This document shows, piece after piece, positions 3,755 to 45,645 of a stretch of DNA of 64,000 nt; position 1 is the stretch's first letter; every line of letters starts with the position of its first letter. The stretch is from an uncultured Nitrospiraceae bacterium (GTDB lineage Bacteria; Nitrospirota; Thermodesulfovibrionia; Thermodesulfovibrionales; SM23-35), in assembly GCA_963727775.1 (NCBI GenBank), contig CAVSHB010000001.1, positions 32,001 through 96,000 of the forward strand, read 5' to 3'. The translations under genes were made by a program, and so were the position numbers. The notes under the pieces were generated by a model, which worked only from the letters and a program-made list of their open reading frames with translations, did no database searches and was not told the DNA's origin.

Positions 3755-4498
3755 CCGACAAAGCTTGTTTTGGAAGAAGTCGCTACCTTCTAACCCCAAA
3801 TAATATCGCATAGTTCTTTCGATAATCCTCAATATCTTCTTTCTGCAGAATCATTCAGTATAGATAAAAAGTCTCAAATTCTGATAAGTGCGAGGGATGC
3901 GCCTTTGATGAAAAAATCTTGAATCATCAAGTCTTTCCATTTTCAACACGTTGTAGGGTATGCCGTGTAAAACATATGACTTGTCGGTTAAAGTCCGACT
4001 GTGGGAATTTGGTAGCTCACCCACATAGCTTGAGGGAGGTGCAAAGGGTAACCTGAAGCATTAAGTTTCCTGACAAAGGCTCCGAAAGGGAGCTGAGCAA
4101 ACCCGCAGGCCGCAGCGTAAGCGAACCTATGTGTAGCCTCGTTAGTGATAAACGGAGTTGTCGACCCTCTCCTACATTGGGGAAGACCGTAGCATCTATC
4201 CTAACAGAAACTACCGTAACCGATAGATGGGCTCCCGGGGTGACAGGGGTGGCATGCAGGGGAAGCCATATGATAATAAACACGGGAGACCCGTGTCGAT
4301 GCCTTCAGAGGGTAACTGGTGGATATAAGGAAACGAAGTTTCACTGGGTCGGCATGGGAGTCGGAGTTGCCCATAGTACCGCTACTATCTCAAAGACAAC
4401 ATAACTTTGAGAGAGGGAAGGGGCAATACCTTCATCATGTTTCCGAAGGAGTAAAGGAAAGGAGATTGCGGCAACGCTATAAACTCCAGTAGTTCTGG

Positions 4499-4534
4499 GA
4501 ACTTCAGAGGAAACTATACCAGTAGACCAAGCGG
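4499..4534 (+). pseudogene. Relic of the outer intron's RT N-terminus
   Basis: Reads ELQRKLYQ*TKR after an AGGAG RBS-like site, then runs almost directly into domain V, so most of the ORF is deleted. Confidence 0.55.
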
Positions 4535-5110
4535 TAGCGAAAGCCTCTGGAAGAAGATGATTGGAAAGCCGGATTCGGGAAAACCGACCGTCCGGTTGTG
4601 TGTCCAGCGAAGGCTGGTGTGTTCAGCAGGAGACAGTCCTGCCATGGCAATAGTCAGAAGCCATGTAGTTAGGATGGCAAGGTAAAGGGAAACCGATATC
4701 CTGAAGCCCATCGACACTATCATCAAAGGGATGATAACGAGTTGCCAGGCCGCAACGAAAGTGAACGTAGAGGTGGCCCCGAGAGTTCGAAGCCCTGAAG
4801 GCCGAGTTTTCAACCGTAGGGTGAAGGCAGCATAGGTAATCGAAAACTGACTGATACGGTTATTTACTTCAGCGGGGTGATAGCGGCGGCATGGCAGCAA
4901 GGGCACACCGAGCAACTGGAGAAACCCTCATCGCCCCAGTGAGAAATCACCGGAGCAAGGTAAGTCCTATAACCAGAAACACTGGGAAGTGGGCTGAAGG
5001 CGGAAGGGTGGCGGAAGGGTCAGCAGTAGCGAAGAAGCAGGGTAATTCCTGTGGAGCGAAGAGGCCCTACTTTTGGCAATCCTCTAACAACATTGTGAGG
5101 CAGGGATGGA

Positions 5111-5746
5111 ATGACAAAGACATCTGTTAGTCTGCAAGAGCTGAGGAAGAGGATCTACGTCAAGGCGAAAGCTGATAAGCATCATCGCTTTTGGGGATTG
5201 TATGTTCACGTATGCAAGGTGGAGACGCTCCAATCGGCCTATGAGATGGCCAAACGCAATGACGGGGCACCGGGCATTGATGGTGTCACCTTCGAGGCTA
5301 TTGAGGAAAGCGGGCTGGAGGAGTTTCTCCTCGGCATACGAAATGAACTGCTTTCATGGATGTACCTGCCTATGCGAAATCGGAAGAAAGAGATACCAAA
5401 GGACAACGGAAGAGTTCGTGTTTTGGGGATACCAACAATCCGAGATAGGGTAGTGCAGGGCGCGCTTAAGCTTATTCTTGAACCAATCTTTGAAGCTGAC
5501 TTTCAAGAAGGCTCATACGGGTACCGTCCGAAGCGGACAGCGCATCAGGCGGTGCATCGGGTCGCAGATGCGGTAGTCCACAATAAAACACGGGTCATCG
5601 ACGTTGACCTCAAGGCATACTTTGATACAGTGCGTCATGACATATTGCTGAGCAAAGTAGCAAGAAGGGTCAACGATGACAGAGTGATGTGGCTGCTCAG
5701 ACTCATACTAAAAGTCAGTGGTAAGCGCGGAGTTCCACAGGGCGGA
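5111..5746 (+). pseudogene. ltrA: Group II intron RT/maturase, N-terminal part (disrupted by RIT)
   Basis: GAPGIDG, RVLGIPTIRDR, SYGYRP, DVDLKAYFD, ends at GVPQGG; the track ORF runs on into the RIT end to 5785. Confidence 0.93.
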
Positions 5747-5772
5747 TTATCCAAAGCTTTGGATAATCCGCC
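5741..5772. repeat. Perfect 32-bp palindrome at the RIT left junction
   Basis: GGCGGATTATCCAAAG|CTTTGGATAATCCGCC. Confidence 0.97.
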
Positions 5773-5857
5773 TTATCAAAAGTAATATATTATCCAAAGT
5801 AAATGCTGTAAGCGCTTGATACAGTTAGGTTTGTGTTTCATTTACTTTGGATAATAC
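5767..5857. repeat. RIT left inverted repeat (91 bp)
   Basis: Reverse complement of 9147-9237 with 3 mismatches; contains TTATCCAAAG boxes in both orientations. Confidence 0.95.
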
Positions 5858-5865
5858 TGCGTGTG

Positions 5866-6876
5866 TTAGAGACGGCTTAGCCAGGCAAGTAGCCCTTCAT
5901 CTTGGTTCCACTGCGGCAAATCAGTTACAACCATGTCGGGATATGCTTTTTCTAACGCTTTTCGTTTCAGCTCAGTATCTGTACGGGCATAAATTTCAGT
6001 TGTTGAAATATCGACATGCCCTAAAAGATCCCGGATATAAATCAGGTTAATCCCTGCCTGTAACAAATTCATCGCCTTCGTATGCCTGAAAACATGGGGG
6101 GTAACATTATCCGGAATAATCGAAGACACTGCCCTTGCACGAGACACGTATTTGTTCAGAATGAATGTAACGCCCATTGGAGTCAGCTTGCCGCGCTGGC
6201 GATTTACAAATAACGGGCGGTCCTGCATGCCGTTTTGAAGCAGATAAGTTTCGGTCATGTACTGCCGCAGCAGGGATTCCATATTGGACATAATTGGAAC
6301 CTGCCTGGTTTTGCGGCCTTTGCCAGTCAGGGTCAGGATTGGTGGATGATCCAATCGGACATCACGAACCTTTAGATCAATCAACTCCTGAACTCTGGCC
6401 CCTGTATCATACAGTGCCGAAAGCATCGTTAAGTCACGACGGCCACTGGCTTTGGAAAGATCGGGCTGGGCAAGAATGAGTTTCAATGCATCAGGTGTGA
6501 GATAATGCACCGTTGGCTTTGGAGCTTTCTTCATCGGAATTGAGAGAATTTTCTGGTATGACAATAGACCGACAGGGTCTTCGACCTGCATATACCTACA
6601 AAAGCCATGAATACAGGCCAATCGTTGGTTGCGCGTAGCGATACTGCTTTTTCTGTCTTGTTCAAGCCATGAGAGGAACCCAACCACGAGTGGCTCATCG
6701 ATGCGTTGTAGACAGATATATTCAATGGACAGGCCGCAACCCTGTTTGCAGTATATGAGAAACAGTTTGAAAGTATCCCGATAAGATTTGATCGTGTTGG
6801 GGCTGACATTGCGCTGGCCCGGCAGATAAACGGATAGGTAATGAGATAATGCCTTGGCAAAGTCAGTTGGTTTCAT
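5866..6876 (-). CDS. ritC: RIT tyrosine recombinase C
   Basis: LYDTGARVQE, GKGRKTR, HVFRHT, LLGH, TEIY catalytic motifs; ATG at 6876 with GAGGAG RBS. Confidence 0.9.
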   Translation of the reverse strand: MKPTDFAKALSHYLSVYLPGQRNVSPNTIKSYRDTFKLFLIYCKQGCGLSIEYICLQRIDEPLVVGFLSWLEQDRKSSIATRNQRLACIHGFCRYMQVEDPVGLLSYQKILSIPMKKAPKPTVHYLTPDALKLILAQPDLSKASGRRDLTMLSALYDTGARVQELIDLKVRDVRLDHPPILTLTGKGRKTRQVPIMSNMESLLRQYMTETYLLQNGMQDRPLFVNRQRGKLTPMGVTFILNKYVSRARAVSSIIPDNVTPHVFRHTKAMNLLQAGINLIYIRDLLGHVDISTTEIYARTDTELKRKALEKAYPDMVVTDLPQWNQDEGLLAWLSRL

Positions 6877-7849
6877 AGTCTTCACTCCTCATAATAGGTA
6901 TGACATGGCCAAAAGCATGGTCCACCTTTGCCGTTATATCCGGATAAAGTTCAGCGGTCAGCCTCAAGTACTGGGATGTATCGCTAAAGGAATGATGGCC
7001 CAGATACGTTTTGAGAATAGGCAGGTAGGCAGTCAAATCCTTTCCTTCCAGCACCCAGCGCCTCAGACAATGAACAGCATGGCTATGCCTCAAATCGTGG
7101 AGCCGCGGCCCTTTTCCCCATCCACCATGAGAAATCCGGGCTTTCCAAAGGAATTTCCTGAAATTTTTATAGACATTCCCTTTGGTTATCGTTTTTCCGT
7201 TCGGAGAAGGAAAGAAATAAGCGTTAGAATCAGAAAACAAATGGACCTGCTTCATATAGGCAGGACATCTATGAAGTAATTCCTTGGACATAGGAACCAG
7301 CCTGTCCTTGTTGAATTTCCCATCCATAATCGTGAGGACACCAGTGTTCAAATCTACATCCCGCACTTTGAGATTCAGCGCCTCCGAAATACGCAACCCA
7401 CAGCCATACAACATACGGAACAGCAGCGGCATGATCCAATGTCTGTTCGGAACTTCGGCACAGTAATGGCAAGCATCCACTTGTTTGAAAAACTCTGCAA
7501 GCTCATCATTGCTGAAAATGTAGGGAATGTATCTGGGTCCCTTCGGGAGGGTATTTTTGGGAAGCACATAAGCATGCACCCCGAGACGAGTCATGTACAT
7601 GGCCAGTTGCCGTACAACGCATACCCTGATCTGTAAAGTCGCCTGAGCTTCATTCGGGCGTTTCTGACGCCATGAATCGACAAGTTGTTTGGACAGTACC
7701 GGTTCTGTGCAGCCGTATGTCAGACAGAACTGATCAAAATGGTAAAGCACCCGTGCACTGCTGTCATACTTATACCCCAGCGAACGCTTTTGTAGAATCA
7801 CTTCCTGGATAAATTCCTGAAATGGACTGCTATATATGAATTCGGTCAT
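6863..7849 (-). CDS. ritB: RIT tyrosine recombinase B
   Basis: LYGCGLRISE, HDLRHSHAV, YLGH, YL; ATG overlaps the ritA stop (ATGA). Confidence 0.9.
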   Translation of the reverse strand: MTEFIYSSPFQEFIQEVILQKRSLGYKYDSSARVLYHFDQFCLTYGCTEPVLSKQLVDSWRQKRPNEAQATLQIRVCVVRQLAMYMTRLGVHAYVLPKNTLPKGPRYIPYIFSNDELAEFFKQVDACHYCAEVPNRHWIMPLLFRMLYGCGLRISEALNLKVRDVDLNTGVLTIMDGKFNKDRLVPMSKELLHRCPAYMKQVHLFSDSNAYFFPSPNGKTITKGNVYKNFRKFLWKARISHGGWGKGPRLHDLRHSHAVHCLRRWVLEGKDLTAYLPILKTYLGHHSFSDTSQYLRLTAELYPDITAKVDHAFGHVIPIMRSEDYETN

Positions 7850-9081
7850 GACTCGAACACCCCCTCGGGGTTCAGCGCGCATTCACGTAGCATCTCCACG
7901 TCCACCTTAAGATAGACAGCCGTTGAATCCGAACTGACGTGTCCCAATATATCGGAAATAACGGATAAGGGTGTTTTCTCTTGAAGTAATCTGCTTGCCA
8001 GCGTGTGCCGTAAGGAATGCATGCCTCTCTTTTTCTGAGGAGAAATCGGGATTTTGGCCAGTCTCATATATTTGACCAAGATTTGATGCAGTCTGTCTTC
8101 ATCCGAGAATGGTTCCAGTGGCGCAAGGTGCCGCAAAAAAACGTAGGGGCTTTCCACCTTGGGACGCCCATTTTTCAGATAATCAATGATCGCCCAGCCG
8201 ATATCGGGAAGAAGTGGGAGGCTCAGCACTCCGGACGTTTTGGACTGTATCAATTCGATGCGATTATCCGGCCATTTCAGGTTGTCCAATTTCAAACGCT
8301 TGATATCTATCGTACGGAGGCCCAACCGCGCGACCAGAAGGATCATTGCATAATCCCTTCTTCCGGCAGGATTGCCTCTGTCTATGACATCGAGCAACTT
8401 GGCGACATGCTCCGGAGTCCATACCGAAGGAATTCTGTTTTGCTTTCTGGCCTTAATCGCAGGGATGGTTTCTGCCAGGTCCTGTGGATGAAGATCGTTA
8501 GTGTGAAGATAGCGCAAAAACGAGCGCAACGCACAAAGATGCAATTCTACAGTCTTATAGCTGTACCCCAACAACGTGTTGATATAGCCGGATACATGTT
8601 TAGCGGTAATATCTGAATAAGAGACAATCTTTTGTGATTCCAAAAAACTCAGAAACTGTTCGGAAATTTTACCATAGTGATTTTGTGTCACTTTGGAGTA
8701 TTCCTTCTGCTGGCAATGGGTTACATAGTACTGCAGTACCTCCTTGAATTCGTCGTTATACAGCAGCTCTTTCTGTTTGTAGTACCTGCGCAGAATGCTG
8801 CCATGTTGCTGGAAGTCACCAAGCATCCGGACAACTCGAAAGGCGTTAATGATCGATTGCGTTAGATCTCCCGCTTCCTCTAATTCGAAAAAGTTATACT
8901 GCTTGTCCAGAAAACGCATACCCACTTCTTCTGCAAAGTGGTCGACTCCTTCGTTTTCGAAAAACGCGACAATACGTTTCCACATCATGCGATAGTACTT
9001 TACCGTATCTTTTTTGTAATGGAGACGGTACAGTTCTTTTTCCAGTCGTGTGATTAAATCTTGCAAAGGCGGGCTGTTCAT
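7846..9081 (-). CDS. ritA: RIT tyrosine recombinase A
   Basis: RDYAMILLVARLGLR, HSLRHT, ILGH, VYL; 411 aa. Confidence 0.9.
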   Translation of the reverse strand: MNSPPLQDLITRLEKELYRLHYKKDTVKYYRMMWKRIVAFFENEGVDHFAEEVGMRFLDKQYNFFELEEAGDLTQSIINAFRVVRMLGDFQQHGSILRRYYKQKELLYNDEFKEVLQYYVTHCQQKEYSKVTQNHYGKISEQFLSFLESQKIVSYSDITAKHVSGYINTLLGYSYKTVELHLCALRSFLRYLHTNDLHPQDLAETIPAIKARKQNRIPSVWTPEHVAKLLDVIDRGNPAGRRDYAMILLVARLGLRTIDIKRLKLDNLKWPDNRIELIQSKTSGVLSLPLLPDIGWAIIDYLKNGRPKVESPYVFLRHLAPLEPFSDEDRLHQILVKYMRLAKIPISPQKKRGMHSLRHTLASRLLQEKTPLSVISDILGHVSSDSTAVYLKVDVEMLRECALNPEGVFES

Positions 9082-9146
9082 CGGTATTCCTCCAAAATAT
9101 TTAGTGAGATCGGTTCTTCAATCTCCCATAAATACCTTGGTCTGCC

Positions 9147-9237
9147 GTATTATCCAAAGTAAATGAACCCCAAACCTAACTGTATCAAGCGCTTACAGCA
9201 TTTACTTTGGATAATATTTTACTTTTGATAAGGCGGA
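9147..9237. repeat. RIT right inverted repeat (91 bp)
   Basis: Inverted copy of 5767-5857, ending in GGCGGA. Confidence 0.95.
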
Positions 9238-9906
9238 GTAATCTCGCCCCTACTGTCGAATATCTATCTTAACGAGGTGGATAAGATGCTGGAGAAGGCG
9301 AAAATCGTAACGAGCAAATCTGGTTTTACCCATGTCGAATATGCTCGTTTTGCGGATGACCTTGTGGTACTCGTAGATGGGTATCGCCGCTGGGACTGGC
9401 TGGTAGAGAGGGTATATCGGCGACTTCTTGAGGAGTTCGCAAGAGTTGATGTAACAGTCAACGAAGAAAAGACACGACTGGTAGACCTGATGAAAGGAGA
9501 GAGCTTCAGCTTTCTGGGATTCGACATTCGGAGTGTCCGAACACTGAGTGACAAATCAGGAGTGCTTATTACGCCAAGGATGAAAGCGCGGACGACCCTT
9601 TTGCATAACCTCAAGGAAATCTTCCAGCGCTTCATATCGCAACCAGTGGGCCGGGTGATAGAACTGATCAACCCGAAACTCCGGGGCTGGGTTAACTACT
9701 TTAGGGTGGGACATTCCAGCAGGTGTTTTCAGTACGTAAAAGATTGGGTGGAGAAGAAGATACGGCGGCATCTTATGAGGGCTCGAAAACGGGGAGGCTT
9801 TGGCTGGGACAGGTGGAGTAGAGACTGGTTTTACGGGCATCTTGGGCTTTATGCCGATTATAAGGTGAGGTATTACCGTGGACTCGAAAGCGCTGCCAGC
9901 GGATAG
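9238..9906 (+). pseudogene. ltrA: Group II intron RT/maturase, C-terminal part
   Basis: VISPLLSNIYL, YARFADD catalytic motif, FSFLGF, thumb/X domain INPKLRGWVNYF; no endonuclease domain seen; the joined ORF is 434 aa. Confidence 0.93.
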
Positions 9907-10157
9907 GCATCATAACCCTTGAGGAGAAGCCAATAGGAAAGCGTAGTGCGGGAAATCCGCACGCTGCGTTTGACGTGGCAGGGAATGGAGAAGTGCCATG
10001 GCGAACCTAAACGGGCACGAAACTGGAAACGGTGGATACAGCCAAGGGGAGACCTACGGTAACTCGCCATTCTTTGACCCTACTGACGAGGGTGATGTAG
10101 GATGGAAAAAGTGGACACCAAAGTCAGATAAAATAAATGAAAGACGGAGGTGTCAGA

Positions 10158-10472
10158 ATGAAAGGGATTCCGCAGGGACGTTACACGAAGGAGTTTCGTG
10201 GGGAGGCAGTGAAGATGGTGTTAGCCGGGGGTATATCGTTGCTGGAGGCAGCTCACCGGCTGTCATTGCCGCCCTCGACGTTAGGGAACTGGGTCAAGGC
10301 GCATAAAGCTGGCAAGCTGGAAGATATAGGCAAGACACAGAAGCCACTGACGGAGCTAGAGATGGAACTGGCAAGGGTAAAGAAAGAGCTGGTAGAGACG
10401 AGAATGGAGCGTGATCTGCTAAAAAAAGCTGCCGCGTACTTTGCGAAGGAGTCGCTGCCCGGTACGCGCTAA
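10158..10472 (+). CDS. IS3 transposase OrfA (HTH)
   Basis: RYTKEFR..AV..V HTH, MERDLLKKAAAYFAKE end; GGAGG RBS. Confidence 0.92.
   Translation: MKGIPQGRYTKEFRGEAVKMVLAGGISLLEAAHRLSLPPSTLGNWVKAHKAGKLEDIGKTQKPLTELEMELARVKKELVETRMERDLLKKAAAYFAKESLPGTR
10421..10428 (+). other. Probable -1 programmed frameshift site (A7G) fusing OrfA and OrfB
   Basis: AAAAAAAG near the orfA 3' end, typical of IS3. Confidence 0.7.
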
Positions 10473-11332
10473 TGAAAGAAATGCGACTTCAATATTCAGT
10501 GCCGCTGATGTGCCGGATATATAACGTATCGGCAAGCGGATACTATGCACACGTGACAAGGCCGCTTTCTAAGCGGGGGCAGGAAGACGCCCGCTTGGAG
10601 GTTGAGATTAAGGCTGCACATAAGAGGACACGGCGGGTATGCGGCGCTGAGAGATTACAGAAGGATTTGGCAGACAACGGTATTGCAGTGGGTGTTTGCC
10701 GGATCAAGCGACTCAGGAAGAAGCTCGGTATACGCTGTAAGCAGACGAAGAAATTCAAAACTACAACTGACTCAAAACATACGCTTCCGGTGGCTGAGAA
10801 CCTACTGGACCAGCAGTTTGAAGTATCCAGGCCGAACATGGCATGGTTGAGCGATATAACATATGTTTGGACCGATGAAGGATGGCTGTACCTTGCCGCG
10901 CACAAGGATCTTTTTAACGGTGAGATAGTCGGATACGCAATGGGAGAACGGATAACGAAGAGCCTTGTAAGTCAGTCTTTATTCCGTGCCGTTGCAGCGA
11001 AGCGTCCAGGGAAGGGGCTGATTCATCACTCGGATCGCGGGAGCCAATATTGTGCTCATGATTATCGGAAGCTTCTTAATCAGTTCGGCATGACGGCATC
11101 AATGAGTAGAAAAGGGAATTGCTATGACAATGCCCCGATGGAGAGTTTCTGGGGCACGCTGAAGCAGGAGCTTGTCCATCACAGACGCTACAGGAACAGA
11201 CAAGAGGCAGTGCAGGATATCACGGAATATATCGAGATCTTCTACAACAGGCAGCGCCGACAGGCAAGACTTGGATATCTATCCCCAGTTGCTTATGAGT
11301 ATCAATTCTATGCACGAGAGCTGGCAGCATGA
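10472..11332 (+). CDS. IS3 transposase OrfB (DDE)
   Basis: WLSDITY, HHSDRGSQY, GNCYDNAPMESFWGTLKQE. Confidence 0.95.
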   Translation: MKEMRLQYSVPLMCRIYNVSASGYYAHVTRPLSKRGQEDARLEVEIKAAHKRTRRVCGAERLQKDLADNGIAVGVCRIKRLRKKLGIRCKQTKKFKTTTDSKHTLPVAENLLDQQFEVSRPNMAWLSDITYVWTDEGWLYLAAHKDLFNGEIVGYAMGERITKSLVSQSLFRAVAAKRPGKGLIHHSDRGSQYCAHDYRKLLNQFGMTASMSRKGNCYDNAPMESFWGTLKQELVHHRRYRNRQEAVQDITEYIEIFYNRQRRQARLGYLSPVAYEYQFYARELAA

Positions 11333-11720
11333 AAGGTTTGGTGTCCACTATTGACATCCGAGGTCAGGGGGAACTGGAGATAGAACCTTATGGCGACTAC
11401 GCCAGTTCTCTACTCTACTGTCTTCAACAAAACTTCCATCTTTGTTAGCACAAACGGTCTGTACCCAAAACTATAGACCGCAAATGCGGTAGATAGTTAA
11501 CCTTGTCGCTCAGGTGTCCTCCAAAGTATATCATCATAATATCTTTTAATTTTTAATATCCTCTTGTATTTTTTTTCATCGGAGATAACAGGGCAGCAAG
11601 TTGTATTCCAAGAAGAAATCCAAACTGTATCACTACCCCATATTTTCGTGCCTTGACAAATATCATAATCTTTCATTACGCTTGTTGCAGATAAAAAAAA
11701 TGTAAGGCGGTGGAGTCATT

Positions 11721-45487: not shown

Positions 45488-45565
45488 TGGCGTCCCCAAC
45501 GGGATTTGAACCCGTGTTACCGCCTTGAAAGGGCGATGTCCTAGGCCGGGCTAGACGATAGGGAC
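45488..45565 (-). tRNA. tRNA-Glu(TTC)
   Basis: Reverse complement GTCCCTATCG...CTTTCAA...GGTTCAAATCC...GGGGACGCCA cloverleaf with encoded CCA. Confidence 0.96.
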
Positions 45566-45569
45566 GCAT

Positions 45570-45645
45570 TGGTGAGCCGCGTTGGATTCGAACCAACGAC
45601 CCACGCCTTAAAAGGGCGTTGCTCTACCAACTGAGCTAGCGGCCC
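45570..45645 (-). tRNA. tRNA-Lys(TTT)
   Basis: Reverse complement GGGCCGCTAGCTCAGTTGGTAGAGC...CTTTTAA...GGTTCGAATCC...CACCA. Confidence 0.96.

Follow-up and report, generated by a model that had tools for sequence, protein, structure and literature searches.

A clade of class F/g2 group II introns whose usual insertion site appears to be domain V of other group II introns

A widespread clade of group II introns, which belong to class F, group g2, and lack an endonuclease, very probably uses the DNA copy of domain V (DV) of other group II introns as its usual landing site. Judged from sequence comparisons, the lineage is a parasite of other mobile introns. The preliminary description of the DNA discussed here had proposed a lineage specialized for homing into DV of other introns, and this proposal is supported by the sites of the homologues and by covariation between the introns and their flanks. 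Twintrons, introns that target ORFs, and one DV twintron in Euglena are known; the present analysis adds a lineage with a recognition code defined in full, with hosts of many kinds, and with a sign of self-avoidance.

The nested locus

The window, i.e., the whole stretch of 64,000 nucleotides that was analysed, corresponds to C1:32001-96000 of the source genome (G000); within it, four elements lie one inside another on the downstream side of a histidine kinase gene (Table 1). The outer group II intron spans 3958-11418, and its ORF has been cut down to a remnant. Its 5′ part is 86% identical to an ORF-bearing relative in the same genome (C1:477072), and this 640-nt part is also present at an unrelated site in another locus, L001. 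The inner intron starts with GTGTG at 4598, directly after CCGGTT, and ends at 10083, where the outer DV/DVI picks up at 10084 with no target duplication. Rfam RF02003 matches both introns, and for the inner intron the match is above gathering. At the inner 3′ end, a match to RF00029 (9937-10083, E 0.002) is below the gathering score, and DVI carries a long insert there; DVI length varies among related introns.

Folding of the empty site in the close relative L001 places the cut after the two U's that pair with the A and G of the AGC triad. Downstream of the cut are one terminal DV pair and all of DVI, which means that the insertion lies one base pair before DV ends. The earlier wording, that the inner intron homes into the ribozyme active site, holds for the recognized sequence, which spans the triad-pairing strand and the bulge region; the cut itself is at the foot of DV and splits DV from DVI.

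Table 1. Coordinates of the features at the nested locus (window positions).
Feature	Position	Strand	Evidence
Outer intron IBS1 (5′ exon)	3952-3957	+	6/6 pairing with outer EBS1 4171-4176
Outer (host) intron 5′ part with DI-DIV and almost the whole of DV; internal deletion in ORF	3958-4597	+	RF02003 match 3981-4120
Outer intron EBS1, CCTACA	4171-4176	+	6/6 pairing with 3952-3957
Remnant of outer RT start (LQRKLY, then stop)	4502-4525	+	Sequence compared with ORF-bearing relative
Outer DV, AGC triad 4567-4569; last pair completed by 10084	4566-4597	+	L001 empty-site fold; DV scan
IBS2 read by inner intron; overlaps DV 3′ bulge region; 4/5 paired in window copy	4585-4589	+	
IBS1 read by inner intron, CCGGTT; 5/6 paired in window copy	4592-4597	+	Covariation, DV descriptor
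Inner group II intron, class F/g2, GTGTG...AC, RIT element inside ORF	4598-10083	+	RF02003 4624-4760; ends
Delta′ of inner intron	4775	+	Pairs with 4811 in 0.99 of 78 rows; 11/12 minor variants compensated
EBS2 of inner intron, GTTCG	4785-4789	+	4785-4788 by covariation; 4789 added by register
EBS1 stem-loop of inner intron: stem 4806-4809/4819-4822, delta 4811, EBS1 AACCGT 4812-4817	4806-4822	+	Covariation, consensus fold
EBS3 of inner intron, A; partner 10084 T, first 3′ exon base	4880	+	Best partner of flank +1 by covariation
Inner RT, N-terminal part, as far as the PQG motif	5111-5745	+	RVT_1; 58% to B.th.I3
RIT-type element with three genes for tyrosine recombinases, bordered by GGCGG at each end, splits inner RT	5746-9231	-	PF00589 x3; junctions
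Inner RT, C-terminal part: FADD motif, maturase domain	9232-9906	+	Pfam RVT_1 and GIIM
Inner intron's own DV; 3′ strand end TGCGTT, 3/6 match to own EBS1	9940-9970	+	DV scan
Continuation of outer intron (DV end, linker, beginning of DVI)	10084-10092	+	Uninterrupted in L001
IS3-like element in 5′ strand of outer DVI, GGG duplicated	10093-11366	+	Junctions; rve/HTH_21 domains
Rest of outer DVI and outer 3′ end	11367-11418	+	56 nt identical to L001

The window's copy of the inner intron is non-autonomous, since its RT is split by a three-recombinase element, which we take to be of the RIT type and of which a second full copy is present elsewhere in the genome. No intact RT of the inner intron was found in the source genome, and any mobility or splicing that the window copy still has would therefore depend on help supplied in trans. 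It is probably a recently spread, now non-autonomous member of its lineage. The host DVI at the locus is also broken, by an element that we label IS3-like, in keeping with its rve/HTH_21 domains; it has eight near-identical copies in the genome, the one in the window included, and overlapping ORFs at 10137-10472 and 10472-11332.

In the source genome, four group II introns, all different, have a RIT-type end in their RT genes at one and the same coding motif, PQG (5746-9231 in the window, and C1:478301, C1:318654, and C4:100). At one such locus, an intron's 5′ half is fused to the 3′ half of a different intron. The RIT-type element looks like a second specialist parasite of group II introns, one that also recombines them. 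Elsewhere in the window, two tandem tRNA genes lie at 45491-45645 on the minus strand.

Assignment to class F, group g2

The inner intron is assigned to class F, group g2, on the basis of its FADD motif, its identities to anchor sequences, its place in the RT tree, and the lack of an endonuclease domain. The RT in the window has FADD, and among 143 intact relatives the first match is FADD in 119 and YADD in 17, with none in 7. Of the five named g2 introns, B.th.I3 of pBMB67 served as the anchor; the N-terminal part of the inner RT is 58% identical to it, versus 45% to the g3 anchor and 36% to the g1 anchor. In a FastTree phylogeny, the clade groups with B.th.I3 (support 1.00), apart from Ni.ha.I1 (g3) and Sr.me.I2 (g1). 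Pfam detected RVT_1 and GIIM only in the inner RT, and no match to an endonuclease family. A placement in class E or g1 was dropped on the anchor comparisons. With respect to the RNA, a 5-nt DV loop and an α′ at the tip of a stem-loop with an extra bulge in DId3 are described for IIE/IIF introns (PMC3753933). The inner intron has the 5-nt loop, in its DV at 9940-9970, while the consensus fold gives no clear position for α′.

Reading of domain V by EBS1, EBS2, and EBS3

The 5′ RNA of 124 relatives was aligned together with the window copy and, blind to any expected pairing, the best-pairing column was determined for each flank position in 116 unique intron-plus-flank rows. Flank positions -1 to -7 had their best Watson-Crick partners in columns 4812 to 4818, in order (0.90, 0.84, 0.93, 0.96, 0.95, 0.70, and 0.78). 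The top Watson-Crick partners of positions -9 to -12 were columns 4785-4788, and position +1 pointed to 4880. In the consensus fold of 78 cluster-level rows, residues 4810-4818 are looped out and closed by a covarying stem (4806-4809/4819-4822), with EBS1 and EBS2 unpaired. The δ-δ′ and EBS1, EBS2, and EBS3 pairings of group II introns are all present in the inner intron.

The specificity of these pairings was assessed by re-dealing the flanks among the introns (48 DV and 24 non-DV clusters, or 43 and 22 for EBS3, with relatedness ignored). The observed pairing of EBS1, EBS2, and EBS3 was reached in 0 of 2000 deals, in the DV and the non-DV sets; for EBS3, pairing with +1 was 0.86 versus 0.54 after shuffling (43 DV clusters). 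The comparison shows a code of three parts: EBS1 reads the 3′ strand of DV, by which the catalytic triad is closed; EBS2 reads the bulge region, which begins two bases upstream of that site; and the base that follows the site is read by EBS3.

Several elements of this code had been anticipated. The preliminary description had CCGGTT at 4592-4597 before the insertion and AACCGT at 4812-4817 in the inner intron, and both are present at these positions and pair at five of six. It had also noted the same relative position as the outer EBS1, and indeed the outer EBS1 is 214 nt and the inner hexamer 215 nt into their respective introns. That AACCGT would form the EBS1 loop is borne out by the consensus structure. 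One result points the other way: folded as a single sequence, 4755-4900 of the window copy gives no significant structure (z 0.25), and part of AACCGT is paired in it; the EBS1 stem of this copy consists of four G-U pairs and is weaker than that of most relatives. EBS2, left unidentified at that stage, is now placed at 4785-4789.

EBS1 in the lineage is mostly AACCGT. EBS2 varies with the host: in 13 of 48 clusters it is GTGA and faces TCAC, and in six it is ATAC, ATTC, or GTTC and faces GAAC. Likewise, EBS3 is G with C at +1 and A with T at +1. The alignments show EBS2 and EBS3 to differ between sublineages in step with host type. In the source genome, all three occupied hosts continue with T at +1, which fits EBS3 = A. 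On contig C4, a DV has stayed empty although its IBS1 matches at 5/6; its IBS2 and +1 mismatch EBS2 and EBS3. Membership in the hairpin-targeting IIC class, with its short EBS1 and no EBS2, is ruled out by the 6-nt EBS1 and the covarying EBS2.

Insertion sites across the clade

The survey comprised 160 related loci (labelled L001, etc.), namely the best 80 of 329 from genomes and the best 80 of at least 503 from metagenomes. Scoring was possible for 119, the remaining 41 being without a 40-nt flank or a located 5′ end. A DV descriptor made for this analysis (triad, eight-pair lower stem, bulge, upper stem, and an end at the junction) was passed by 74 of the 119 loci versus 278 of 20,000 random sites in the source genome. 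The enrichment of DV among the flanks of homologues, named in the preliminary description as a check on its proposal, is thus found, and at the same DV register. A census of DVs in the genome by this descriptor misses variant DVs, for example that of a host relative at C1:482440.

Counted as RT clusters at 95% amino acid identity, 47 of 73 scorable clusters are at DV by the automatic call and 50 of 73 after seven manual relabels, with 25 clusters unscorable. The loci relabelled by eye were a false positive, L052, and the misses L091, L122, L125, L131, L142, and L158. There are 66 distinct flanks among 79 DV loci. About a third of the scorable clusters (23-26 of 73) are outside DV, most of them with a new EBS1 that fits the new site; in the non-DV members (24 clusters), 5.5 of the 6 EBS1 pairs are still Watson-Crick. 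In the RT tree (FastTree, midpoint-rooted), DV-sited members are present throughout the clade. Because the non-DV groups are nested among them, DV targeting looks ancestral for the clade, as far as the tree can tell. The sites of the nearest relatives outside the clade (L179-L181, L199, and B.th.I3) are not in DV.

One sublineage, with EBS1 CGTCGT (L032, L043, L046-L059, and L119), has left DV and occupies many sites in one genome, mostly within the loop of an inverted repeat. Moreover, some DVs of the host family end in CGGAAT and are one base longer. They are empty in the source genome (C1:482440) and in L165, but in L138, L142, and L145 they hold introns whose EBS1 loop is changed. Host escape and counter-adaptation are a possible reading of these CGGAAT-ended DVs.

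A bias toward DV could also be produced by selection in the host cell, if insertion took place at many ACGGTT/CCGGTT sites and only the harmless copies inside introns persisted. The source genome does hold 3,207 such hexamers, and a few members reside at non-DV sites with a matching IBS1 (L004, L005). We nevertheless consider this explanation very unlikely, since EBS2 and EBS3 match DV too and change with host type, and since one fuller match pattern occurs only four times in the genome. Moreover, intergenic DNA and IS elements would be equally harmless but are rarely used by members that keep AACCGT.

Introns of class IIC use terminators and attC sites. In the present clade, the RT might read the DV hairpin in single-stranded DNA, with base pairing playing a secondary role. 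Such guidance by structure would agree with a target that is always the 3′ foot of a hairpin, with the inverted-repeat sites of most copies in the escaped CGTCGT sublineage, and with the priming at replication forks described for endonuclease-less introns (PMC4424553). It is at odds with the full 6-mer EBS1 and the covarying EBS2, neither of which is IIC-like, with the EBS1 pairing that non-DV members preserve, and with copies that fail the DV test yet have a matching IBS1 (again L004 and L005). As a replacement for recognition by base pairing, guidance by structure is unlikely; it could add to it.

Independent insertions and host range

Besides the window copy, the inner 3′ part is found twice more in the source genome (99.9% and 98% identical); both of these copies have lost their 5′ parts and are followed by the DV end and DVI of other hosts. 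Each of the three inner copies is thus followed by a different host's DV end and DVI, and the comparison shows one intron colonizing several different hosts in one genome. In another genome (L002/L003), the inner introns are 99.8% alike and the hosts, at unrelated sites, 89% alike. The hosts of L003 and L012 are 89.6% alike, with inner introns only 74.8% alike. Across eight twintrons with related hosts, no covariation between inner and outer identity was found.

The hosts are diverse. Host RTs (n=21) have a median identity of 34% and are placed near g1, g3, class-C-like, and several other groups. Among 20 loci chosen for long upstream sequence, 13 have an Rfam host 5′ domain upstream (RF01999, RF02001, RF02003, or RF02005). 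In 18 of 33 DV loci with at least 2.3 kb upstream, an RT match ends within 500 nt, and 12 of these have an ORF of at least 380 amino acids. Since only some DV loci have an RT match or ORF upstream, ORF-bearing and ORF-less hosts are both used. The same ORF-less twintron is present in the window (3958-11418) and in L001 (3215-6016), at unrelated sites in two genomes (outer 97%, inner 95%). This arrangement suggests that the ORF-less host stayed mobile and that the inner intron followed or re-invaded. Complete plasmid records with the nested arrangement are those of Bradyrhizobium, Paraburkholderia phymatum STM815, and Caballeronia.

In one genome, the flanks of L012 and L013 are swapped, such that the 5′ host part of one type is joined to the DVI of another; this reflects either recombination between inner copies, which makes chimeric hosts, or mis-assembly. 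Multi-level nests were also observed (L008:5737 and 6500, L107:84 and 340, and L135:2034). These comprise tandem members, at DV and directly 3′ of the intron end, and one member inside the domain I region of another.

The twintron shared between the window and L001, the swapped flanks of L012/L013, and the chimeric RT halves joined at RIT ends in the source genome could be taken to mean that the nested arrangement is one old insertion inherited as a composite, or that it results from recombination or mis-assembly between intron copies. As a general explanation, this is refuted by the lack of covariation between inner and outer identities and by the spread of the hosts over the RT tree, together with exact junctions that include the inner 5′ end, DV, and DVI and the agreement of the complete plasmid records. 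We regard it as hardly conceivable, and repeated insertion into the DV of different hosts is the reading that we retain.

The clade's own domain V

A lineage guided to DV would meet the same hairpin in its own ribozyme. In the 75 clusters for which a DV was found (of 102), the clade's own DV is without the target hexamer in 74; the tails are TGCGTT, TGGGTT, CGGGTT, TACGTT, or similar. The outgroup DVs found by the same scan (8 of 17) keep ACGGTT or CCGGTT in all eight. Position -5 is C in 72 of 79 targets versus 2 of 75 own DVs, and EBS1 pairs at 5.6/6 with targets versus 3.3/6 with self (41 clusters). In L008 and L121 (6/6) and in L129 (5/6), invaders are retargeted onto the altered DV. These data suggest that the change in the own DV may serve self-avoidance and that the retargeted members may represent counter-adaptation.

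The evidence for self-avoidance is not firm, because basal g2 introns outside DV (B.th.I3, L185, and L199) also have a non-consensus DV tail, class-C-like outgroups have others, and the alteration maps only once on the tree, to the clade stem, and so counts as one event. The altered DV is retained by those members of the clade that are sited outside DV.

In a broader account, which we hold to be evenly poised between right and wrong, an arms race is under way. The clade would have made a universal landing site of the ribozyme hairpin that is best conserved, and would have escaped its own guide through compensatory recoding of its own DV; some members would then have retargeted onto the recoded DV, and sublineages of EBS2/EBS3 would have split the host classes among them. 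If this is true, excision of the host depends on that of the parasite, and the spread of other introns could be curbed or rewired by the clade, which could also, by recombination, swap DVI modules between classes.

Proposed mechanism and splicing order

The pathway proposed here would begin with RNA-guided reverse splicing of the inner intron into the DNA copy of the host DV. It would then be primed at a replication fork, as reported for endonuclease-less introns in PMC4424553. A DV target would be present in every group II intron, and insertion there would spare the genes of the host. The inner intron would be transcribed within the host precursor and would excise before the host DV and DVI rejoin.

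From the geometry of the site and the Trichodesmium case (PMC4649490), we infer that the host would splice only after removal of the inner intron. At the locus in the window, the IS3-like element in the host DVI is a second block to host splicing. With respect to direct evidence, contigs of four of four runs on L001 (three RNA, one DNA) have a joint that skips the inner intron, with the same two ends. The joint in the RNA runs was dropped as evidence for splicing, since the DNA run has it too and it is indistinguishable from an empty DNA allele. The empty site in independent data confirms the boundaries, not splicing.

Relation to known systems and implications

As described by Tourasse and Kolsto (PMC2504315), M.a.I5, UA.I3, P.l.I2, and an intron of B. 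thuringiensis israelensis have as IBS1/IBS2 a conserved catalytic motif of other retroelements, which generates twintrons, and like the window lineage they are without an endonuclease. They target the YADD coding sequence in the ORF and leave the ribozyme whole, whereas the target of the window lineage lies in the ribozyme DV and not in the ORF, so that ORF-less hosts can be used too. Membership in the YADD-targeting M.a.I5 type is ruled out, since insertion is into DV, which lies downstream of the host's reading frame.

Group g2 of class F was described by Toro and Martinez-Abarca in 2013 (PMC3552965), who list its loci as 'putative non-coding', transposase, or hypothetical gene. FADD, an RT-X without endonuclease, and a clade with B.th.I3 are common to both; the portions of that paper at hand name no DV target, and B.th.I3 is basal and not in DV. 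In Thermosynechococcus elongatus, the TeI3-in-TeI4 twintrons (PMC2882425) likewise have identical inner introns in diverged outer introns, as a result of independent insertions. They differ in that insertion is into DIV, between a pair of start codons, the inner introns have no ORF, and the hosts form one related family in one genome. The psbF twintron of Euglena chloroplasts (PMC8393795) is likewise a group II intron inside the DV of another, a likeness drawn from its description and at the level of DV; it is a single organellar case, and its description there mentions no RT-bearing lineage or targeting code. In Trichodesmium, Tr.e.I7/I8 (PMC4649490) shows inner-first sequential splicing in vivo of a bacterial twintron, the order that would apply to the window lineage; there the inner intron is in domain I, and it too is a single case.

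Full-text literature searches returned no bacterial lineage that targets DV; subscription literature was mostly outside their coverage, so that absence from print is unproven. No such lineage appears in the sections seen of PMC12584367, PMC8643678, PMC4028801, PMC3753933, PMC8919778, PMC5572947, and PMC8637638. According to their descriptions, two published pipelines drop twintrons or miss the outer intron (PMC4028801, PMC8919778), which would explain why the lineage was overlooked.

The present data give group g2, which had been described and was as yet uncharacterized, what appears to be a way of life, i.e., parasitism on the catalytic core of introns like itself, in a range of hosts that spans classes and phyla. 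With intact copies in cultured bacteria, three questions could be addressed: does the nesting of ribozymes dictate the order in which they splice, can a mobile element evolve immunity to itself through recoding of the helix of its own active site, and does one intron lineage restrain others? Finally, the clade may offer a natural set of guides for knockout or tagging of the group II introns in a genome.
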